From positions 14,865 through 78,864 of the forward strand of contig JAFTVE010000002.1 of assembly GCA_017465905.1 (NCBI GenBank): a stretch of DNA of 64,000 nucleotides, in the 5' to 3' direction. Below are positions 1 to 51,845 of the stretch, in pieces. Below the pieces are notes generated by a model. The model worked only from the letters and a program-made list of their open reading frames with translations, was not told the DNA's origin and did no database searches. A program made the translations under genes and the position numbers. Source of the stretch: Bacteroidaceae bacterium. GTDB taxonomy: Bacteria > Bacteroidota > Bacteroidia > Bacteroidales > Bacteroidaceae. Position 1 is the stretch's first letter; every line of letters starts with the position of its first letter.

Positions 1-696
1 CACGGCGGCAAACTGCCCCTCGGGAGCCACCACGGTGATGTCGGCCTTGTCCACGCTACCCTCCGTGGTGTAGGTGTCGCCATCCTTGTAGGTGGTGTTG
101 CCAATCTTGATGGTGCGCCCGTCGGGGATGCTGATGGTGTAGGTGCGCTCGGCGATGACCACCTCGGTGAAGGTGTAGCGGCTACCTCCGTCGGCCGCTC
201 CGGCATCTTGCCACAGGCCCAGCGTGTTGGGCCCGTCGTAGGGGTTACCGCCCACGCCCTGGTACCAGTTGATGTACTTGTCATTGGTGCCCGATGTGGT
301 GTAGGGCTGCAGCTCGTAGTTGTCGGCCGCATAGTTGGTCACCTTGAAGTAGGCGCCCTCGACCTTCGTGTCAGAGAATTTCACGAAATCCTTGCCGTTG
401 CTGTAGCTGCCCGCCTTGGTATAGGTGAGCCACTTCTTTGCCGTATGGCTGTAGATGTAGTAGGCATTGGTGCGTCCCTCCACGGTGTAGAAGGCAAAGA
501 GACCGTAGTTCTCGGGTGTCTGTGTCGGAGCAGTGAGCGAGCTGGAGTAGACATTGTTGCCGTTCATCATCGTATACACATGCTCGGGTCGTCCCGTTTC
601 TGGTAGTGTCGTAGAGGGTTGTACCTTGTCGGCCATCAGCTGTATGGTGGCTTGGAGCATTATCAGGCAGAGTAGGGGTAAGCGTCGTGTTTTCAT
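1..696 (-). CDS. hypothetical secreted protein (N-terminal part; rest of gene lies outside the window)
   Basis: Continuous minus-strand frame from the window edge to ATG at comp(694-696). N-terminus MKTRRLPLLCLIMLQATIQLMA resembles a signal peptide. Missing from the ORF track because the window edge truncates it. No family recognised. Confidence 0.55.
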   Translation of the reverse strand, partial: MKTRRLPLLCLIMLQATIQLMADKVQPSTTLPETGRPEHVYTMMNGNNVYSSSLTAPTQTPENYGLFAFYTVEGRTNAYYIYSHTAKKWLTYTKAGSYSNGKDFVKFSDTKVEGAYFKVTNYAADNYELQPYTTSGTNDKYINWYQGVGGNPYDGPNTLGLWQDAGAADGGSRYTFTEVVIAERTYTISIPDGRTIKIGNTTYKDGDTYTTEGSVDKADITVVAPEGQFAAV

Positions 697-885
697 GTTC
701 TTCGTATGTTTTTGTGTAGAATCTTCGTCATTGAGTTGTTTTCTCTTTGCGAAGGTACGAATAAGCGAGCATAAAGTCAAGTATCAACGAGTGAAAGTAA
801 ATAATTGCTTGCATTTTTTTGCCGAGCGAGGCAGAAACTCAATAAAATTAAGTTTCACTTGAACTTTTTTCAGCGAGAGAAAACG

Positions 886-921
886 CAAAAATAAAAAGCG
901 GTGGATGAGATGTCCACCGCT
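886..921 (-). terminator. rho-independent terminator after the lipoprotein gene
   Basis: AGCGGTGGA-tgagatg-TCCACCGCT hairpin, followed on the minus strand by TTTTTATTTTTG. Confidence 0.7.
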
Positions 922-1003
922 TTAAGCAAAAAAACTTTTACCAATAATCAGCGTGAGTTACTTGAACTCATCATAATCAATTCTTTTTTTTAGTTGTTTG
1001 TTT

Positions 1004-1624
1004 TTAATATAGCTGATACATCACGGTAGCCGTAGCCAGCGTACCCACCTCGTCCAGTGTATACTCTTTGACGTGCAGGCGGATGTATTTCAGTTCACCA
1101 TCCTCTGTTGCGATATAGCCTCTGTATCCGCACTTCGGCTGCATCTCAGCCGCGTAGTGAGGAATATACTCCACCCACGAATACTGACTGTCTACGTGGG
1201 TATCGCAATAGCATTCGGGGTGCTCGGTGATATCGGCGATGCTTCTCACCTTATCCAATTGTTCCAGATAGGGGAACACATAGCAGGTGTCAGGAGTCTC
1301 CAACACTTCGTATTGCCCTGCATCGCCCCAATGGCCAGCGGTGCGGGTATGCATAAGCAACAGCAACTGGCCTCTGCCGAGCGCCAGCGTGTATTTGTAG
1401 TTGTAGTCTTCATAGATTACCACGTTGCTCCTTGTGCTCCAGCGTTCAGGATTATATTTTATTATATGGGCTTCGTGCTTCAGCGTTGCTTCCTTGATAG
1501 CTATGCTTGCTGTATAATTCGTATCCGTGGGAGGATACAGTTCTTCTTCTTCGTCACAAGCGGTGAAGGTAAAGCCCACCACAGCAACGGCCATAAGGGC
1601 ACAAATAGTCCAAAACTTTTTCAT
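1004..1624 (-). CDS. hypothetical lipoprotein
   Basis: 206-aa ORF. N-terminus MKKFWTICALMAVAVVGFTFTAC has a signal peptide with a lipobox-like Cys. A hairpin terminator follows downstream at 886-921. Confidence 0.6.
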   Translation of the reverse strand: MKKFWTICALMAVAVVGFTFTACDEEEELYPPTDTNYTASIAIKEATLKHEAHIIKYNPERWSTRSNVVIYEDYNYKYTLALGRGQLLLLMHTRTAGHWGDAGQYEVLETPDTCYVFPYLEQLDKVRSIADITEHPECYCDTHVDSQYSWVEYIPHYAAEMQPKCGYRGYIATEDGELKYIRLHVKEYTLDEVGTLATATVMYQLY

Positions 1625-1661
1625 AATCGTTTTCTAAATGTTTGAATCTGTAAAATGTTTG

Positions 1662-2363
1662 TTATTCGGTTACAGGCCTAATTGGCAACCCATGAGAGCG
1701 ATAGGTACTTATGCTCCTATTGCCGGAAACAATGTCATTGTATGTGAAAAGAATGCTGTAGGCACTGCTTGGGAAATTGCTCAAGGTCGCAGACCAATAT
1801 GCTCCTATTATATCTGCTTCATTCGCTGTACCTATTCCTGTGGGGATGCCTGTACAAGGTAAGAAGATGCTGTTCCCATTAGGACCTGTTACTATATTTC
1901 CTTTCACCCCATTAATTTCAGTAGCTTCCCAAGAGCATTTCAAACAAAGCTCCTCAAGTTCCTCTTGTGTAGGCATACGCCAAGATCCACCCCACTTGGC
2001 GCGAACCACGTCATAGGCAGTACCACTAATGTCATTACCGATGTTCTTGTACTCTTCGGAGTTGTAATAATTACCATCCTCATTCAAATCACCCAAGTAA
2101 TATTTATAGGTGAAAGGAGTATATGCTTCCTTCTCTTCAGTTTCACCCCAAGCATAATATGCTCCAGTGGCCTCAGGAGTTGAAGCTCCTATGTTGCAAT
2201 TTGCCCATTTAACCGACAAACCGAGGTCTACAGCCTCTACGTGTGACGGAGCATTATCATGCTGCTTGTCTTCGTCTTCTTTCTTGCAAGACACAAGCAT
2301 TAAAGACATTGGTAGCAGAAATAGTAACATTGCTTGTACAAAAGATGCAAATCTATTTTTCAT
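1662..2363 (-). CDS. FISUMP (Fibrobacter succinogenes major paralogous) domain lipoprotein
   Basis: Start moved to the internal ATG (MKNRFASFVQAMLLFLLPMSLMLVSCKK, lipoprotein signal) because a -7 box lies at 2394-2401. VDLGLSVKWANCNIGA...YYAWGE is typical of this Bacteroidales lipoprotein family. Confidence 0.65.
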   Translation of the reverse strand: MKNRFASFVQAMLLFLLPMSLMLVSCKKEDEDKQHDNAPSHVEAVDLGLSVKWANCNIGASTPEATGAYYAWGETEEKEAYTPFTYKYYLGDLNEDGNYYNSEEYKNIGNDISGTAYDVVRAKWGGSWRMPTQEELEELCLKCSWEATEINGVKGNIVTGPNGNSIFLPCTGIPTGIGTANEADIIGAYWSATLSNFPSSAYSILFTYNDIVSGNRSISTYRSHGLPIRPVTE

Positions 2364-2393
2364 AATCAATTCTTTTATTATTAAAAAATTGTG

Positions 2394-2401
2394 CAAATAT
2401 A
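2394..2401 (-). promoter_or_regulatory. Bacteroidetes -7 box (TAtaTTTG) for the FISUMP lipoprotein gene
   Basis: Plus strand CAAATATA, 31 nt upstream of the ATG at 2363. Confidence 0.5.
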
Positions 2402-2841
2402 CACTATATATCCATGTCCTCCAACGAATCATACAAGATTCTATACCAACGCACAAAAAAAGCGCGGACAAAACTCTGTGTATCTGTCTTTGAGGTCTTC
2501 GACTACCTTGCACCAAATATACGAGTAAAGCCCACGCCTGATGGCGTGAGCGTCATCGCTTTACTCTTGGTGCCTAGTGAAAGTGTCGAAGTTTCAAAGA
2601 CAAGATCAAAGCTAAACGCTTTCCCAATATGTCTAAAATGTGCGTATCAGCTATACGCTAATGCTCCATAGGCAAATCATTTAATGTGTTATACTTTTGT
2701 TGTATTTACCGCAAAGATACACATTAATCGCCAACAAACAAGCAACGGCGTTTTTTTTCTTAGAAGAAAAGGTATTTGGCAATTCATAAAATTAGTAACG
2801 GGCAAATAGATTTTTCCCGATAGTACAGTAGATAAACTCAA

Positions 2842-2943
2842 ATATCCATGGATATTTTATCACGTATCCACGGATATTTACTTACGTATCCATGGATATT
2901 TCATTACGTATCCGCGGATATTTCATTAAATATCCACGGTTAC
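2842..2943. repeat. five 14-bp palindromes (RTATCCRYGGATAT) phased at exactly 22 bp
   Basis: Sites at 2842-2855, 2864-2877, 2886-2899, 2908-2921 and 2930-2943 (the last is degenerate in its right half). Centre-to-centre spacing is 22 bp each time. Intergenic. Confidence 0.9.
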
Positions 2944-3132
2944 GCAAGTTTTTCTATGCTTGGAATTTGATTTTCGGACAAGTATTTCGAAACTTTACGG
3001 AGTAATCAGAAGAAGAACTTAAACCTCCCATTTTATGGCGCGAGATTCTTTGGCCGAAGCGCAAGTAGCTCGGGTTTGCAGGCGTTCTTCCTGTTATTAG
3101 GATGGCAGTCTTTGTGTAATTTCGCTCCAGGC

Positions 3133-4002
3133 TTAGAAACTGATGCTGCACTGCAGTCCGTAGGACTGGGTGTTGCGTGGCGTGGTGTGTCGCTGTTGGT
3201 CGATGATGCTGGGTCGCACCTGTACGGTGAGGTCTTCGGAGATGTCGAAGTTGGAGAGCTCGGCATCGACATAGGCATCGATGACGGAGATGAGGTATAC
3301 GCCGATGAAGCAGAAGATGCTGAGGTCGCGCTGGCGGCGGTAGTTGTCCTTACGGTTCTTGAAGACGCGCTCCAGGTAGTCGCGGTTGGCCTCCACGTTG
3401 TAGCGGGGTGGGAGGAAGTCCTCGTAGCTGGCGGTGCCGGGGTCGTCGTCCATGAGGTCGAGGTAGCCCTGCGAGTAGTCGCTGTACATCTGGTTGTTCC
3501 AGTTGAGGGCGTAGGCGCAGCCGAGGAAGCCTCCGTAGACGATGGGTAGTTTCCAGTATTTGTGGTTGTAGATCTGTCCGCCTCCGGGGAAGACGATGCC
3601 GGCCCATGTGGCTTTGCCGGGGTCGGGGGTGAAGGTGGCTATCTTCTGCAGGCGCTGCTGGCGACGGGCACTGGGGGCCTTGGGGGCTTTTGTGGTGTCG
3701 GGGGTCGCTGTGCCGGGGGAGGGCTCGGGTGTGTCTGATGGCTTGAGTATGCCCAGCTCGGCCTTTGCGGCGCGGTGGAGCGAGTCGCCCAGGGCGATGG
3801 CGCGTGTCTCGCGCGGTGTGGGGGTGGTGAGGGTGTCGCCCAGGGTGAGACGGCTGTCGCGCAGGGGCTTGAGGGGTTGGCGGTCGCCTGCTCCGAGGGT
3901 GTCGGGCACGAGGGTGTGGGCTTGTGCTGCCAGTGTTGTGGGTAGGCATAGCATCACAAGGAGTAGGAGGGTATGTAGGGCTCTGCTGCTGTGGGGTGTC
4001 AT
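3133..4002 (-). CDS. DUF5683 domain-containing protein
   Basis: Signal peptide followed by GGGQIYNHKYWKLPIVYGGFLGCAYALNWN and C-terminal VIDAYVDAELSNFDIS. Its start overlaps the parB stop (ATGA), the usual Bacteroidales arrangement. Confidence 0.7.
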   Translation of the reverse strand: MTPHSSRALHTLLLLVMLCLPTTLAAQAHTLVPDTLGAGDRQPLKPLRDSRLTLGDTLTTPTPRETRAIALGDSLHRAAKAELGILKPSDTPEPSPGTATPDTTKAPKAPSARRQQRLQKIATFTPDPGKATWAGIVFPGGGQIYNHKYWKLPIVYGGFLGCAYALNWNNQMYSDYSQGYLDLMDDDPGTASYEDFLPPRYNVEANRDYLERVFKNRKDNYRRQRDLSIFCFIGVYLISVIDAYVDAELSNFDISEDLTVQVRPSIIDQQRHTTPRNTQSYGLQCSISF

Positions 4003-4874
4003 TTTTCCTTGAGTTTGTCAAGCAATCCGATGATGCGCTCGAGCTCGCGCTCGTTGTCGAAGGCGATGGCTATCTTGCCCTTGCCTCTGTTGCTGCAGGT
4101 GAGGATGACCTCGGTCTGGAAGTAGTTGGAGAGGTGCTTCTTGAGCATCTCGTAGTCGTTGGCGGGCTTGGGGGGTGTGGCGGCTTGCTTGGCTGCCTTT
4201 GCCTTGCTCTTCTTGATGAGTTCCTCGACCTTGCGTACGGAGTAGCCGAAGGTCTGTATCTCCTCGAAGAGGCGTATCTGCTCTATGGGGTTGTCGAGGG
4301 CGAGGAGTGCGCGGGCGTGGCCCATGTCGAGCTCGCGGTTCTTGAGGGCTACCTGTATCTGTGCGGGGAGCTTGAGCAGGCGCAGGTAGTTGGCGATGGT
4401 GGTGCGTTTCTTGCCTACGCGCTCGCTGAGCTTCTCCTGGGTGAGGCTGTACTCCTCGAGCAGGTGCTGGTAGGCGAGGGCTATCTCCATGGAGTTGAGG
4501 TCCTCGCGCTGTATGTTCTCGATGAGGGCCATCTCCATGACGTTCTCGTCGTCGGCAGTGCGTATGTAGGCGGGCACGGTGGTGAGCCCGGCGAGCTGCG
4601 ATGCACGGAAACGGCGCTCGCCGGCGATGATCTGGTAGGTGCCGTCGTCCATCTTGCGCAGGGTGATGGGCTGTATGATGCCTATCTCCTTGATGGAGTC
4701 GGCGAGCTCCTGCAGTGCCTCGGGGTCGAACTCGCGGCGCGGCTGGTTGGGGTTGGCCTTGATGTGGCTGATGGCTATCTCGCTGATGGAGGATGAGCCT
4801 TCGGTCTTCACCGTGTCGGTGGCGATGAGGGCGTCGAGGCCACGGCCTAAGGAGGGGTATTTCTTGGTTGCCAT
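3999..4874 (-). CDS. parB: chromosome partitioning protein ParB
   Basis: LGRGLDALI, IQPITLRK and GERRFRAS motifs. Start set at MATKKYPSLGRGL; the 30-aa upstream extension in the track is read from the repeat element. Confidence 0.9.
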   Translation of the reverse strand: MATKKYPSLGRGLDALIATDTVKTEGSSSISEIAISHIKANPNQPRREFDPEALQELADSIKEIGIIQPITLRKMDDGTYQIIAGERRFRASQLAGLTTVPAYIRTADDENVMEMALIENIQREDLNSMEIALAYQHLLEEYSLTQEKLSERVGKKRTTIANYLRLLKLPAQIQVALKNRELDMGHARALLALDNPIEQIRLFEEIQTFGYSVRKVEELIKKSKAKAAKQAATPPKPANDYEMLKKHLSNYFQTEVILTCSNRGKGKIAIAFDNERELERIIGLLDKLKEK

Positions 4875-4884
4875 ATCTTTTTTT

Positions 4885-5047
4885 AGTTGAAAGTTGAAAG
4901 ATGAAAGTTGAAAGTAGGCTTCGCGATGTGTTCCCTGCTGGATGACAAAACTTTTATCTTTCACTTTTCAGCGTTTCATTTTTTTAAAGTTATTTTTCTG
5001 AGTTGTAAGTAGGAAAACTTTCATCTTTCATCTTTCCACTTTTTTTA
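4885..5047. repeat. GAAAG-word hairpin element, copy 1 (between parB and the four-helix-bundle gene)
   Basis: AGTTGAAAGTTGAAAGATGAAAGTTGAAAGT ... AAAACTTTCATCTTTCATCTTTCCACT. The terminal arms are imperfect reverse complements. Roughly 90 percent identical, by eye, to copy 2. Confidence 0.9.
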
Positions 5048-5402
5048 TGTTATTATTCTGTTTGCTGGTTTTTATACTTGCAGTAAGTAGTGCTATAAGT
5101 TCTTTTAAATCACTGTACATAGAGCTGAAGTGCTGTTCATCTATAATTCCACTTTCGTGTAGAAGCTCTAACCAATAGGCAGTTTCATCTGCTTCTTTTA
5201 GGGCGATGGATAGTTTGTTGATAAAGTCAGCGCTACTTTGGGCATTGTTGCTTTCTCGTGCATTGGCACCTATGCTGGTCCCGCTACGCAGAATTTGTTT
5301 GGATATAACGCACTCATTCTTCTCTTTTTGGAGATAAGAATAGAAACGTATTATCCTTATTGCAAATTGTTTGCTTTTTTGTAACAATGGTCCGTAACTC
5401 AT
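5028..5402 (-). CDS. four-helix-bundle protein (23S rRNA intervening-sequence protein / Avd-like family)
   Basis: 124 aa. Family-typical SKQILRSGTSIGANARE...ALKEADETAYWLELL. Looks markedly AT-richer than its neighbours. The stop codon lies inside the flanking repeat. Confidence 0.85.
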   Translation of the reverse strand: MSYGPLLQKSKQFAIRIIRFYSYLQKEKNECVISKQILRSGTSIGANARESNNAQSSADFINKLSIALKEADETAYWLELLHESGIIDEQHFSSMYSDLKELIALLTASIKTSKQNNNIKKVER

Positions 5403-5411
5403 AGCTCTCTT

Positions 5412-5582
5412 AGTTGAAAGTTGAAAGATGAAAGTTGAAAGTAGGCTTTGCGATGTGTTTCCTGCCGGATGGCAATAATCTTTCTTCTTTCACTTTTCAG
5501 CGTTTCATTTTTTTAAAGTTATTTTTCTGAGTTGGAAGTAGGAAAACTTTCATCTTTCATCTTTCCACTTTCCACTTTTTTT
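5412..5582. repeat. GAAAG-word hairpin element, copy 2 (between the four-helix-bundle gene and parA; overlaps the parA 3' end)
   Basis: Direct repeat of 4885-5047, offset by 527 bp. Contains the parA stop codon and its last 8 codons. Confidence 0.9.
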
Positions 5583-6332
5583 AATGATTTCCTGTGCCAA
5601 AGTCAAGTAGTTCTGTGCTCCCTTCGACTCGGCATCGTAGAGGATGGCGGGGATGCCGTGGCTGGGGGCTTCGCTGAGGCGTACGTTGCGCTGGATGACG
5701 GTGTCGAACACCAGCTCCTGGAAGTGGCGGCGCACCTCGTCGAGAACTTGGTTGCTCAGGCGCAGGCGTGAATCGTACATCGTGAGCAGGAAGCCCTCGA
5801 TGTTGAGGCCGGGGTTGAGCTTCGACTTGATGATCTTGATGGTGTTGAGCAGCTTGCTGATGCCCTCCAGAGCGAAGTATTCGCACTGTACGGGGATGAT
5901 GACCGAGTGGGCTGCCGTGAGGGCGTTGACCGTGATGAGGCCCAGCGAGGGCGAGCAGTCGATGAGGATGTAGTCGTACTCGTTGACGAAGGGCTCGAGC
6001 ATGCGCTTGAGCACGGTCTCGCGGTGCTCGAGGTTGAGCATCTCGATTTCGGCCCCCACGAGGTCGATGTGTGAGGCTATCACTTCAAGGCCTTCGATAT
6101 CGGTCGTGTATATGGCTTCGCGAGGGTCGCGGCCGTCGATGAGGCATTCGTAGATGGAGCAGTCCACATTGTGGATGTCCACGCCGAGGCCCGATGAGGC
6201 GTTGGCCTGAGGGTCGGCATCGATGAGCAGTACTTTCTTCTCCAGCGTGGCCAGCGAGGCGGCGAGGTTGATGGCGGTAGTGGTCTTGCCCACGCCTCCC
6301 TTCTGGTTGGCCAATGCAATAATCTTTCCCAT
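5550..6332 (-). CDS. parA: chromosome partitioning ATPase ParA/Soj
   Basis: MGKIIALANQKGGVGKTTTAINLAASLA has the deviant Walker A motif, and ParA similarity runs full length. The last 8 codons (SGKWKDER) and the stop are encoded by the repeat element. Confidence 0.93.
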   Translation of the reverse strand: MGKIIALANQKGGVGKTTTAINLAASLATLEKKVLLIDADPQANASSGLGVDIHNVDCSIYECLIDGRDPREAIYTTDIEGLEVIASHIDLVGAEIEMLNLEHRETVLKRMLEPFVNEYDYILIDCSPSLGLITVNALTAAHSVIIPVQCEYFALEGISKLLNTIKIIKSKLNPGLNIEGFLLTMYDSRLRLSNQVLDEVRRHFQELVFDTVIQRNVRLSEAPSHGIPAILYDAESKGAQNYLTLAQEIIKKSGKWKDER

Positions 6333-6610
6333 TTTCTAATACTTGCTATTGTTTTCGACCGCGAAATAAACAAATATCTGTGTAACTTTGCTAAAAAACG
6401 TCCTAAACTTTCTAAAAATGTGGATAACTCCCCGTTTTTGTTAATAACTCGGGGTGGCTGTGGTTTTTTGTGCAACTGAGTTGCAAAGTTGGGCCGCGAG
6501 GGGCCAAGGTGTTGGTAATCTCGCAAAGTTGCTGTAAATTCGCGGTGTCAAAAGATGATGATGGTGATGCTGACGTTGTCGGCTGACCTTATTAAAAAAA
6601 GAAGTGTATT

Positions 6611-14394: not shown

Positions 14395-15360
14395 TGTGTT
14401 TGAAATGTTTTAGTTTTGCCTATAAGTTCTCCCGATTCGGCGATATGTATTATTTAAAACAAAAAAGCGTGAGAACCTGTACCTGTTGCTCGTCTCACGT
14501 TCTGAGGCCTTCGCATTGCCCGATTAGTCGAAACGAGCAACGCAGACCTCACGCCGATATGAATATATAACCACACTATACCCACCACGGTTGCGGTAAG
14601 GTATAATAAAGGAATATAAAAAACATATCCCGTGACATCTACTGTTGCTTTGTCTTTGACTAATCGTTAGAAGTTGCGAAGTTCCAGAACGTCAAAACCA
14701 AAGCGTCAAGTAAACGCCTTTCCACTATGTCGTCCCCGCCCAGCCACCCTAATCTCCAATAAAGAATCAAGGCATCGGCGCGAAGATGGAGCAAAGGTAA
14801 TAATAAATTGATAATTGACAAATGACAATTAACAATTATTTTCTTGCATCTTAAAAGAAACGCAATGAAGATATTTACACCCAACCCAGAGGGCAAGCAA
14901 CATCCACCGCAACAATCTCCAAGGTTTTCGAGGAATAGGCGTAGGTGTACCTTGAAGGCCTTGGGGATTTGCTCTCCGAATAACCTTAAGGAATCACAAG
15001 AATCATTTTGACATACGTCATAGCATGCTATCATCGCAGACTGCCTGATGGCAACCATGAAACGAAGTTCTCCATTATGAACCGTATCCAATGTTTGCCC
15101 CCGGCAAAACAGCTTGTACCCCTTGGCAGAAAGGTTTGTCAAAGGAGGTTTCTGCCAAGAGTATACAAACTGAATATGTGTATGTTATATATATTAAGGA
15201 ATCGCGCTTGCGCCTCTTGAGACCTGCATTATAGTAATTTTTCGTTTGGGGCCTGGCAGAGTTGAATTGACAATTGAAAATAGACAATTGAGAATTCCTA
15301 GTAGGCACTCACGTCAGCTTTGTCCATCAACCATCAACCACCATCCATCATCCATCAACT

Positions 15361-15425
15361 CTGCAGCGTAGCGAGAGCAATGATAGGACTACTTAGTCAT
15401 TGCCAAGCAAGCAAAGAGTCTTGAT
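15361..15425 (+). repeat. 65-nt bipartite conserved motif, copy A
   Basis: CTGCAGCGTAGCGAGAG-N23-TGCCAAGCAAGCAAAGAGTCTTGAT. Preceded by a CCATCAAC-type word array at 15324-15359. Confidence 0.8.
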
Positions 15426-49790: not shown

Positions 49791-49855
49791 ATCAAGATTC
49801 CTTGCTTGCTTGGCAGAGTAATAATAAGTTTTACTCTACTCTCGCTACGCTGCGG
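49791..49855 (-). repeat. 65-nt bipartite conserved motif, copy B (gmd-fcl spacer)
   Basis: Minus strand reads CCGCAGCGTAGCGAGAG-N23-TGCCAAGCAAGCAAGGAATCTTGAT. Preceded on that strand by an (AATTGTG/AATTGTC)n-type array at 49856-49920. Confidence 0.8.
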
Positions 49856-49920
49856 AATTGTGAATTGTGAATTGTCAATTGTGAATTGTGAATTGTGAAT
49901 TGTCAATTGTCAATTGTCAA
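49856..49920. repeat. tandem heptamer array (AATTGTG/AATTGTC), about 9 units
   Basis: GAATTGTGAATTGTGAATTGTCAATTGTGAATTGTGAATTGTGAATTGTCAATTGTCAATTGTCAATT, immediately after the gmd stop codon. Confidence 0.9.
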
Positions 49921-51048
49921 TTACTTCACTATTCCCTTCTCCAGATACTCCACCAGGTTGGTGCGTATGCTCTCTCCGGCACGTTCTACGGCTACCTTGG
50001 CCATATCGGCATCCACCATAATCTTTACCAGTTCCTCGAAGGTCGTTTTCTGAGGGTTCCAGCCGAGCTTCTCTTTCGCTTTGGATGGGTCGCCCCAAAG
50101 ATTGACGACGTCGGTGGGGCGGAAGAAATCGGCAGATACCTCAATCAGTACATCTCCCACTGTCAGTCGCTTATTCACAGCCGATAGCTGGGGAGTGATG
50201 CTCTTGATGACACCCTTCTCGTCGGCCCCTTCACCTACGAACTCCAGCTCGATGCCTACGTGCTTGAACGCATAGTAGCAGAAGTCGCGCACCGAGTGCT
50301 GTATGCCGGTGGCGATGACGAAGTCCTCAGGCTTGTCGTTCTGCAGCATCAGCCACATACATTCCACGTAGTCCTTGGCATATCCCCAGTCGCGCAGCGA
50401 TGACAGGTTGCCCAGATATAGCTTGCTTTGTTTACCCTGGGCAATGCGTGCCGCAGCAAGGGTTATCTTGCGTGTGACGAAGGTCTCGCCACGGCGCTCG
50501 CTCTCGTGATTGAAGAGGATGCCCGAGCAGCAAAACATGTTGTATGCCTCGCGGTACTCCTTCACTATCCAGTGGCCGTACAGCTTGGCTACAGCATACG
50601 GACTATAGGGGTGGAAGGGTGTTTCCTCGTTCTGAGGCACTTCCTCTACCTTGCCGTACAGTTCCGATGTAGAAGCCTGGTAGATGTGGCATGTATCGGC
50701 CAAGCCGCTGAGACGTACAGCTTCGAGGATGCGCAATACTCCGGTGGCATCTACATTGGCCGTAAACTCGGGTGAGTCAAAGCTCACCTGCACGTGGCTC
50801 TGTGCAGCGAGGTTGTATATCTCGTCGGGACGCACCTTGCTAATAACCCGAATCAGGCTCATGGAGTCGCCCAGGTCGGCATAGTGGAGGTGAAATTTCG
50901 GCTGCCCCTCAAGGTGTGCTATACGTTCGCGATAGTCTACCGATGAGCGGCGTATAGTACCATGTACCTCGTATCCTTTGCTTAAAAGAAACTCAGAAAG
51001 GAACGAACCGTCCTGACCGGTGATACCGGTTATCAAAGCTGTTTTCAT
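49921..51048 (-). CDS. gmd: GDP-mannose 4,6-dehydratase
   Basis: [26 protein letters not shown] and NHESERRG motifs. -7 box at 51072-51079. Confidence 0.95.
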
Positions 51049-51071: not shown

Positions 51072-51079
51072 CAAAATTA
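51072..51079 (-). promoter_or_regulatory. -7 box TAatTTTG for gmd
   Basis: Plus strand CAAAATTA, 24 nt upstream of the ATG at 51048. TTGC lies about 20 nt further upstream, in the -33 position. Confidence 0.55.
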
Positions 51080-51370
51080 GTGCAAGCCGAGAGAAAATGC
51101 AAGCTTGCTTAATATTATTTTCTTCCTTGTCACTCGGCAGAGATTGTGTAAGCCCATCTCTGCTCTCGTTCCTGCGTCAGTTGCAATTTTCCGAGGCGCA
51201 GCCTAATTTCTGGCCTGCATAGCAGGACTAAAGATAGTGCAAGCCGAGAGAAAATGCAAGCTTGCTTAATTTTATTTTCTTCCTTGTCACTCGGCATAGA
51301 GATTAGGCAAGCCCATCTCTGCTCTCGTTCCTGCATTAGTTGCAATTTTCCGAGGCGCCGCCTAATTTCT
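51079..51370. repeat. two direct repeats of about 134 bp (period 157 bp), each carrying a promoter-like module
   Basis: 51079-51211 and 51236-51370 align with few mismatches (AGTGCAAGCCGAGAGAAAATGCAAGCTTGCTTAAT...CCGAGGCGC.GCCTAATTTCT). Confidence 0.85.
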
Positions 51371-51431: not shown

Positions 51432-51845
51432 CTATATGGCGAAAGTTCATAAATCGGTTGGCTTTGGCAACGCGGAGAGAACAGAGCCAAATTCATTTGA
51501 ACTCTGCTCACGAGCAAGCAAGCACAACAAATTCAGTACTTCCCCGTCAGTACTCCAGTACTGAGCCGTAAGTACTCGAGTACTTGGTCATAAGTACTAT
51601 AGTACTTGCATGAAAGTACTGATAGTTACGCCTTTTTTCTGTCTTAAGATTGTCGTTTCAGTGTGAGTCGTGCTAAAGAAGTTTACAATATAGGGCTTAA
51701 TATACTGAAAAGGTTGACAATTATTCTTTCATTCCTATTGGCTATAGTATTAAAACAAACTCTTAATATCCGTCAAGAAGTTAACGTTATCGTTGCAGCG
51801 TTCCGCACTGCCAAAGCCAACCGATTTATGAACTTTTGCCAATAG
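51432..51845. mobile_element. 414-bp segment bounded by 37-38 bp inverted repeats (MITE-like, or invertible/ori-like segment; nature unknown)
   Basis: Left CTATATGGCGAAAGTTCATAAATCGGTTGGCTTTGGCA (51432-51469). The reverse complement of 51809-51845 is CTATTGGCAAAAGTTCATAAATCGGTTGGCTTTGGCA, with a 28-nt perfect core. Confidence 0.4.
51535..51620. repeat. eight AGTACT hexamers in a strict 14/8/14/8/14/8/14-bp start-to-start pattern (22-bp period)
   Basis: AGTACT starts at 51535, 51549, 51557, 51571, 51579, 51593, 51601 and 51615. The spacers (N8 and N2) are not conserved. Confidence 0.9.

Follow-up and report, generated by a model that had tools for sequence, protein, structure and literature searches.

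BrickBuilt elements of Porphyromonas gingivalis, classed as a MITE/minisatellite, are intergenic 23-nt tandem repeats with dyad symmetry, accompanied by a leader and a tail, that occur in 19 copies per genome with a repeat number that varies between strains; beyond P. gingivalis and P. gulae, the authors detected no homologous sequences (Klein et al, 2015, PMC4596501). Another group of dispersed palindromes, the repetitive extragenic palindromes (REP) and REPINs, carries a GTAG or CGTC tag at the foot of the palindrome (PMC3733652). Here we describe an array of five palindromes at positions 2842-2943 of a 64,000-nucleotide stretch of Bacteroidaceae DNA (contig JAFTVE010000002.1, hereafter the window), located downstream of the genes parA, parB, and DUF5683. 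With confidence only slightly better than even, we interpret this array as one copy of a dispersed, non-coding, BrickBuilt-like tandem-palindrome element, in form a small minisatellite of 22-bp units, that is neither a replication origin (oriC) nor a ParB centromere. In the literature on iterons, parS and oriC in Bacteroidetes, REP and the REP-associated tyrosine transposases (RAYT), and miniature inverted-repeat transposable elements in Bacteroides, we found no description of these arrays, with BrickBuilt the only analogue, and a literature search by the site sequences returned primers only.

The array has no strand of its own and is formed by five head-to-tail 22-bp units, each consisting of a 6-N2-6 palindrome and an 8-bp linker. 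The palindromes follow the consensus (R)TATCC-RY-GGATA(Y) and occupy positions 2842-2855 (unit 1, ATATCC-AT-GGATAT), 2864-2877 (unit 2, GTATCC-AC-GGATAT), 2886-2899 (unit 3, GTATCC-AT-GGATAT), 2908-2921 (unit 4, GTATCC-GC-GGATAT), and 2930-2943 (unit 5, ATATCC-AC-GGTTAC), the last being a degenerate terminal unit; written without breaks, they read ATATCCATGGATAT, GTATCCACGGATAT, GTATCCATGGATAT, GTATCCGCGGATAT, and ATATCCACGGTTAC. The initial annotation of the window, made from its sequence alone, had described five 14-bp palindromes at an exact spacing of 22 bp with partly conserved linkers, placed beside an AT-rich tract in a non-coding gap after the parA-parB-DUF5683 operon, and these descriptions hold. 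The palindromes start at 2842, 2864, 2886, 2908, and 2930, the linkers have the common sequence TTYATTAC, and the adjacent region at 2700-2850 has a GC content of 29-32% compared with ~50% for the window. The array ends 190 bp from the DUF5683 stop codon (3133) and 1056 bp from the parB stop codon (3999), within a non-coding gap of ~770 bp that agrees with gene calls on contigs from the same species. With up to one mismatch allowed, TATCCRYGGATA matches five times in the window, every time inside 2842-2943, while shuffled sequence gave a mean of 0.42 matches and reached five in none of 100 shuffles. Tandem Repeats Finder (TRF) reports a period of 22, 4.4 copies, and 84% matches for the array. 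As a whole, the array forms an imperfect dyad at 2829-2956, with arms of 65 nt (2829-2893 and 2892-2956) that are 72% complementary, so that dyad symmetry reaches ~13 bp past the array on either side (TAGATAAACT / AGTTTTTCTA); besides this dyad, no inverted repeats bracket the array.

Arrays built in this way, some with related cores and some with different ones, are found at many other, unrelated intergenic positions. When metagenomes were scanned for pairs of TATCC-NN-GGATA sites at a 22-bp spacing, at least 120 loci were returned, comprising simple ATCCATGGATAT satellites and three further kinds. The first kind is the orthologous locus L131, beside DUF5683, which has four units where the window has five and in which the centre dinucleotides are different or flipped and the arms are intact. 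The second is L140, a different locus with different neighbours, where a window-type array of five units with the same linker consensus (GTRATRAA) lies ~650 bp upstream of an unrelated lipoprotein gene. The array of L140 is ~82-88% identical to that of the window by blastn, and the ~60-bp flanks are ~65% identical as read from the alignment, making 2785-3002, the array with these flanks, the likely extent of the repeat element. The third kind, class A, consists of three or four units of GTATCC-WW-GGATAC with a 22-bp period on gut-metagenome contigs. At least 35 distinct class-A copies remained after removal of duplicates, three of them on a single 106-kb contig, and their flanking genes are unrelated. 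The copies nonetheless have common linkers and a common flank consensus, CAGAAAACTGCCCCGAAAAA-[units]-GTAACCTTGCTTCGTTTTTTC, and are bracketed by an A-run and a T-run. Because linkers, flanks, and often a tail, module X, are common to them, the class-A copies, judged by their sequences, descend from one another and are not independent operators. In a Bacteroidaceae metagenome-assembled genome (MAG; L021), a class-A-like array with the same linkers follows the SLT/LysM gene, with arms changed symmetrically in four of four units from CC..GG to CT..AG (GTATCT..AGATAC). Copy number shifts by whole units, from four to five between L131 and the window and from two to three between L089 and L083; the units are thus head-to-tail copies that are gained and lost whole. 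The GTWAC end motif of unit 5 is also found at one end of class-A arrays and of a second array in the window described below.

Module X abuts 23 of the 35 class-A copies, as counted from the alignment and flank listings, and also follows a four-unit array with a different core (AAATTGTCTTATAAGACAATTT). This dispersed repeat spans ~100-150 bp and has an abundance of CTGATTCAGT motifs (L085, L093, L094, L112, L121, L190, and others). Its junctions with 22-bp arrays are variable and it abuts at least two core types, behaving as a shared tail; part of it is 80% identical to the Parabacteroides distasonis replicon NZ_OY725757. Copies adjacent to tRNA genes raised module X as a candidate end of an array-targeting integrative element, which was ruled out by L190, where the module lies directly beside the housekeeping gene gap (GAPDH). 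Because of this position, module X is itself a small repeat module and not the end of an island.

The pattern of conservation points to the palindrome arms as the constrained part of the unit. Over the 35 class-A copies, bases that depart from the consensus make up 4.4% of the arms, 18.5% of the linkers, and 27.9% of the centres. Because the arms are ~4 times more conserved than the spacers, they are probably read as dyads, either by a dimeric protein or through pairing as hairpins. Central dinucleotides alternate between AA and TT in class A, and AC alternates with GT in arrays of the window type, as inversion of the middle of a palindrome would be expected to produce. Arms can also change symmetrically within one array, as in TTGTCTT..AAGACAA to TTCCCTT..AAGGGAA, and such symmetric changes show that the dyad is preserved, whether through selection or through template-switch repair. 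In the mechanism that we propose, the arms would act through this symmetry, either as binding sites for a dimeric protein with its gene elsewhere, adjacent dimers being spaced by two helical turns, or by forming hairpins or a cruciform. A protein partner is favoured because the period of two helical turns is fixed across unrelated cores, non-palindromic ones included. Locally, the array would probably serve as a bidirectional terminator or insulator that keeps the parA-parB-DUF5683 transcript apart from the promoter after it; for the array in its present position, we infer only that it may have such a role or an upstream regulatory one.

Several observations weigh against interpreting the array as a dispersed element with a local boundary function. 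The TATCC-RY-GGATA type itself was found at two loci only, possibly from different organisms, so that several copies in the source genome are only presumed, and the module X tail is absent from the window array. We identified no target-site duplication, no transposase, and no clear terminal inverted repeats beyond ~13 bp. Some of the apparent flank reshuffling in class A could reflect metagenome misassembly at repeats and chimeric contigs. The sharp preference for 22 bp, which includes the non-palindromic arrays L061 and L040, suggests phasing by a protein and would fit a regulatory role equally well. A scan for consensus terminators gave no call for the array, and the operon side has a weak U-tract. 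Finally, the likeness to BrickBuilt is one of description, as the text of PMC4596501 gives no BrickBuilt sequence.

The 22-bp period is not particular to one core, and short tandem arrays of about this unit length are frequent between the genes of Bacteroidaceae. In ~1 Mb of Bacteroidaceae loci, TRF detected 11 arrays of at least 2.8 copies at period 22, four at period 21, and two at period 23, with almost no tandem arrays at periods 13-20 or 24-50. An independent set of class-A loci totalling 415 kb, which was not chosen for any other array, contained 54 arrays at period 22 and four at period 23, with none at 16-21 or 24-39, and more than 15 of its arrays have other cores, such as TGCAGC-GT-GCTGCA, TTGTCTT-AT-AAGACAA, and CCTTGAAAAGG. 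Array cores are mostly palindromic, with a few that are not (L061, L040). The peak at 22 bp was measured within Bacteroidales sequence. Period 7 gives the other clear peak, with 73 arrays of at least 2.8 copies per ~1 Mb, and heptamer repeats are very common in intergenic regions, as at 49855-49922 (GAATTGT x 9.7), 5412-5442, and 4885-4915 of the window. Upstream of parA in another genus (L030, 4633-4856), a composite 224-bp structure contains three TCACGAGCGCTCATG-type units, four GGTGTACACC palindromes, and then the first units inverted, in a foldback-like layout.

The window itself holds a second array at 51534-51626, with AGTACT-N2-AGTACT cores in a 6-N2-6 plus 8 layout and a 22-bp period. 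Its end, ...AGTTACGCCTTTTTTCT, is similar to the end of the first array, ...GGTTACGCAAGTTTTTCT, and its family recurs inside an operon in another genus (L012). This second array is contained in a 325-bp segment upstream of gmd-fcl between 40-nt inverted repeats at 51437-51476 and 51802-51841 that are 93% complementary, and in contigs with a different gene upstream, homology begins at the outer inverted repeat. Inversion of the segment was considered, and is unsupported by the 10 of 10 contigs in which it has the same orientation. Also upstream of gmd, a 159-bp tandem duplication at 51078-51370 carries a CTCGGCTTGCACTA motif that runs into a -7 box (TCTTTG) in L003 (6790-6960) and has a variant in L202 (~15330-15400), both upstream of SLT/LysM; the motif seems to be a reusable promoter module.

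Extending from these arrays, we tentatively propose, as a generalization that we would expect to fail rather more readily than to hold, that Bacteroidaceae, and probably other Bacteroidales, carry an undescribed superfamily of tandem elements with period 22, at a density of about one per 20-60 kb, in which each family has its own half-site and the strict period implies a family of dimeric DNA-binding proteins co-evolving with the arrays. Half-sites within the proposed superfamily would include TATCC, AGTACT, TGCAGC, TTGTCTT, and GTACCGA, and some families may have common end or tail modules. Candidates for the cognate proteins are mobilising enzymes or host factors, and the whole would be a candidate Bacteroidota counterpart of REP/RAYT or BrickBuilt.

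At the locus itself, parA (5550-6332), a 23S_rRNA_IVP gene (5028-5402), parB (3999-4964), and DUF5683 (3133-4002) all lie on the minus strand. The 23S_rRNA_IVP product is a four-helix bundle, and its gene, between parA and parB, is bracketed by ~75-bp direct repeats (4960-5033 and 5487-5560) that give it the look of an inserted cassette. The closest relatives are uncultured Bacteroidaceae MAGs. On contigs from the same species, the genes run on one strand in the order parA-(IVP)-parB-DUF5683-[array and ~480-bp leader]-(233-aa protein)-206-aa lipoprotein-(DUF6567)-Big_2 protein of 1438 aa-SLT/LysM-RelA-GH2. The array is identical in four of these contigs (L201-L204) and in the close relative L001, and a fifth (L206) has the last two sites only, at the contig end. 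The initial annotation had proposed looking for the array next to parAB in related species. We assembled 80 species-level Bacteroidaceae with a parA-parB-DUF5683 locus, fetched via DUF5683 (L001-L080), and L001 alone has the array, which is missing from relatives that are otherwise syntenic. High conservation of the 770-bp intergenic region was considered as a sign of horizontal transfer or constraint, but by its identity profile L001 is no more than a close relative, at 93-98% identity to the window in parB and the DUF5683 C-domain. In most other Bacteroidaceae, the SLT/LysM gene or another gene directly follows DUF5683, and the array therefore lies within a lineage-specific insert of ~7 kb between DUF5683 and SLT/LysM, ~105 bp inside its DUF5683-side edge. 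The insert (window 1-3050, L201-L205) contains strain-variable cassettes of small lipoprotein genes, with the 233-aa protein in some strains and DUF6567 in others, and encodes the 1438-aa Big_2 surface protein, the gene for which is missing from L001.

The alternative that survives best, though we consider it unlikely, is that the array is an operator or upstream activating array in which five dimers of one dedicated factor bind on roughly one face of the helix and control a minus-strand promoter ~120 bp downstream, the output of which would be a long structured leader or non-coding RNA together with the lipoprotein and Big_2 surface-protein genes. The Bacteroides promoter -7 consensus is TAnnTTTG, and a predicted Bacteroidetes-type -7 box (TATCTTTG) is present on the minus strand at 2712-2719, ~120-230 bp downstream of the array. 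Other 22-bp arrays lie at comparable distances from a -7 box (~153 bp in L021, 166 bp in L036, 120 bp in L040, and 239 bp in L061), and a separation of 120-230 bp would be long for a repressor, though an upstream activator could act over it. The initial annotation had considered an operator array for a dimeric regulator to be an equal possibility, and part of that proposal stands: the palindrome arms in the array are constrained, being perfectly conserved where centres and linkers vary, and a spacing of 22 bp, two helical turns, is kept across cores. The existence of non-palindromic 22-bp arrays also favours an operator, because the period then cannot be due to hairpins, and the second window-type copy, in L140, is likewise upstream of a lipoprotein gene. 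In addition, the predicted binding motifs of Bacteroides hybrid two-component systems (HTCS) of the AraC type are direct repeats ~21 bp apart (PMC3878776). What does not stand is a singular operator beside a gene for its regulator. Related arrays are dispersed copies, recurring at 35 or more unrelated loci with linkers and flanks preserved, which indicates copying of an element and not convergent evolution of operators. Neither a regulator nor any other DNA-binding gene is next to the window array, where the neighbours are DUF5683, the lipoproteins, and the Big_2 protein, and none is conserved beside related arrays. For several arrays (L022, the second array of L040, and L012), there is no promoter to act on, as they sit inside operons or between convergent genes, and class-A arrays usually follow the 3′ end of a neighbouring gene.

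Between the array and the lipoprotein genes, the minus strand at 2440-2716 is a candidate structured non-coding RNA or long leader with no Rfam match, which folds into a rod-like hairpin of ~200 nt; four close sequences show three compensatory pairs, no mismatched pair, and gaps at the alignment ends only. An 85-aa open reading frame on the opposite strand (2414-2671) is probably spurious. A sigma-54 promoter served by the array as enhancer sites was also considered and rejected, as no GG-N10-GC was seen by eye between the array and the -7 box.

Folding of the array as RNA provides the basis for a different, improbable alternative, in which the element acts without a protein partner as a bidirectional intrinsic terminator and 3′-end stabiliser made of long AU-rich hairpins, the repeats being incidental. 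As single-stranded RNA, the array folds on both strands into two long hairpins, with energies of -52 and -50 kcal/mol (z = -6.3 and -6.7). On the plus strand, units 4 and 5 form a hairpin at 2904-2955 with 20-nt arms that are 85% complementary and a 4-nt loop, followed by GTTTTTCT, which has the look of a terminator for rightward transcripts. On the minus strand, units 2 and 1 form a hairpin at 2829-2879 with a 15-bp stem, followed by UUUGAGUUUAU, a possible weak terminator of the parA-parB-DUF5683 transcript. The tracts after these long AU-rich hairpins read GUUUUUCU on the plus strand and UUUGAGUUUAU on the minus strand. A terminator would suit the position of the array, which comes 190 bp beyond the final operon gene and before the promoter that follows, and would suit the A-run and T-run brackets of class A, in which the right-hand gene is directed into the array in 35 of 41 cases, placing the array after its 3′ end; read in the direction of that gene, the last two class-A units form a 14-bp hairpin followed by U5, as read from the sequences. 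However, one hairpin is enough for termination, and neither five units nor a fixed 22-bp period is required. Class-A arms lack compensatory drift from unit to unit, arrays of the same period without palindromes exist, the terminator scan was negative for the array, and the operon-strand U-tract (UUUGAGUUUAU) is poor. Rfam searches of the array at gathering thresholds returned nothing, and at E up to 10 gave merely spurious matches to miRNA-like hairpins.

It is distinctly improbable that the array instead represents subterminal repeats of the ~7-kb insert, such as arm-type sites for a recombinase or excisionase, transposase sites, or plasmid-type iterons. Iterons and Tn7/Mu-type end sites classically take the form of three to five 22-bp repeats beside an AT-rich tract, and the array matches this form. 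It also lies close to the edge of an insert that interrupts the usual DUF5683-SLT/LysM-RelA order and whose cassette content varies between strains. Against this, no rep, integrase, or transposase gene is found among the insert genes (lipoproteins, DUF6567, and the Big_2 protein), and no second or inverted array was found at the far edge of the insert. The array region has no match in the plasmid collection PLSDB, and viral contigs contain no paired sites. Moreover, iterons and transposase sites have a direction, which palindromic units such as these lack.

A non-canonical parS loaded by the adjacent ParB is very improbable. The array does lie beside parA-parB-DUF5683, and plasmid centromeres such as sopC are likewise built of phased palindromes in tandem. 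A centromere-like site had been thought conceivable on first inspection, along with the remark that the sequence is unlike canonical chromosomal parS. The remark is correct, the core TATCC-RY-GGATA being unrelated to TGTTNCACGTGAAACA, and the centromere proposal fails on this dissimilarity, on the parS-reading residues of ParB, and on conservation in relatives. Canonical parS (TGTTNCACGTGAAACA) has no match in the 64-kb window with up to three mismatches, and an exact search for the degenerate core GTTNCACGTGNAAC found none in 12-kb loci around parB of the 80 Bacteroidaceae species. This absence could be taken to leave room for an unusual parS. However, the ParB is of the standard chromosomal type, with E about 1e-50 to Thermus Spo0J and Caulobacter ParB (PDB 6T1F), and the alignment places Arg and Gly opposite Caulobacter R173 and G201, which are reportedly the residues that read parS. 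Since ParB looks canonical and no parS was found in the window or the 80 loci, the true parS of these bacteria must be elsewhere or differ in sequence. Among the 80 relatives, which have a near-identical ParB helix-turn-helix context, 78 lack any TATCC-NN-GGATA site, one has a single site, and L001 has the array. Arrays with unrelated cores occur at varying positions in the parA...relA cluster of different genera (upstream of parA, in the parB/DUF5683 gap, and after DUF5683, SLT/LysM, and relA), equally far from parAB. The density of arrays around parAB, ~1 per 58 kb, shows no enrichment over the 1-3 per 60-100 kb found elsewhere, and the adjacency of the array to parAB therefore looks coincidental.

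That the array is part of oriC, with DnaA-box-like sites beside an AT-rich unwinding element, is the least credible of the alternatives and already largely refuted, as no unit within 2842-2943 is within one mismatch of the DnaA box TTATCCACA, the sign of the GC skew is the same on either side of the array (-0.112 compared with -0.059, the latter over 11.8 kb, in L202; positive along 61 kb of the window, which has the opposite orientation, with ~12 kb covered on the other side of the array), all genes from parA to GH2 share one orientation on both sides of the array, syntenic relatives lack it, and the better DnaA boxes of the locus are upstream of parA. An AT-rich tract does adjoin the array, and the half-site TATCCAC had been noted to match seven of nine DnaA-box positions. 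It is confined to units 2 and 5, accounting for two half-sites out of ten; the rest are TATCCAT, TATCCGC, or TATCCGT, and the CACA end of the DnaA box is not kept among the half-sites. The boxes upstream of parA are on the minus strand, 20 bp apart, at 6419-6427 (TTATCCACA) and 6439-6447 (TTATTAACA). A similar cluster of three TTATCAACA is found upstream of parA in L040, and two TTATCAACA lie within a tandem repeat ~1.8 kb upstream of DUF5683 in L015. These DnaA-box-like sites may indicate control of parAB by DnaA.

Interpretation of the array as a copy of a dispersed tandem-palindrome element has consequences for annotation and for the biology of these bacteria. Origin prediction in Bacteroidota can be misled by DnaA-box-like palindromes next to parAB, and the present case shows a route to their exclusion. 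In ~1.4 Mb of Bacteroidales sequence, a period of 22 is shared by nearly all repeats of minisatellite type, which have differing cores and tightly conserved arms; this points to an unrecognised non-coding class in dominant gut bacteria. If the proposed superfamily exists, its elements could affect transcription boundaries and offer landing sites to other repeats. Should the arrays be read by a protein family, they would be marks of transcription boundaries, regulatory sites, or insertion hot-spots, and would provide orthogonal DNA-protein pairs. If they are merely selfish repeats, they would still account for assembly breaks and strain-level length polymorphisms.

Among known systems, iteron origins resemble the array in its five 22-bp units and AT-rich tract (29-32% GC), which fit the range of three to seven repeats of 17-22 bp, with palindromic units being atypical; they differ in having an adjacent rep gene or plasmid context, neither of which is found here, and there is no match in the plasmid collection. 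Phased operator and centromere arrays, including lambda-type operators, F sopC, ParR/omega-type plasmid centromeres, and iterons, likewise have short repeats about two helical turns apart with conserved arms and free centres and linkers. In contrast to these systems, the array has no cognate DNA-binding, Rep, or partition gene adjacent to it, the neighbouring ParB being of the canonical parS-reading type, and it is chromosomal, present in one lineage, and related to dispersed element copies.

The REP and bacterial interspersed mosaic element (BIME) or REPIN sequences of Proteobacteria, which are mobilised by RAYT, provide a further comparison. They are short, dispersed extragenic palindromes, often clustered, with stems that are conserved across copies; they are frequent at the 3′ ends of genes or inside operons and are occasional targets of other mobile elements; and their proposed roles are termination, mRNA stability, and protein docking. 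The units described here, (A/G)TATCC..GGATAT, differ in lacking a GTAG or CGTC tag and in being strictly head-to-tail at a fixed 22 bp, where REPs form inverted pairs with variable linkers. In addition, no RAYT gene was seen in the local neighbourhoods of the window array or the class-A arrays.

BrickBuilt offers the closest likeness. Its repeat unit is 23 nt and not 22, and the explicit 6-N2-6 palindrome core is a difference of the arrays described here, as are their length of 3-5 units (with one of 8.5) compared with up to 22.8 and the coexistence of many families with different cores. The BrickBuilt leader and tail have small inverted-repeat ends; possible counterparts in the window array are its ~60-bp flanks, ~65% like those of L140, and its dyad extension of ~13 bp, and the clear tail of class A is absent from it. 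For both, there is no Rfam match and homology is confined to close relatives. Both belong to the order Bacteroidales and are strictly intergenic, with head-to-tail repeats of 22-23 nt that have no separate spacers, dyad symmetry that gives long predicted stem-loops, and a repeat number that varies between strains (here four in L131 and five in the window), and in both, leader or tail modules accompany only some of the copies, as module X does the class-A arrays.

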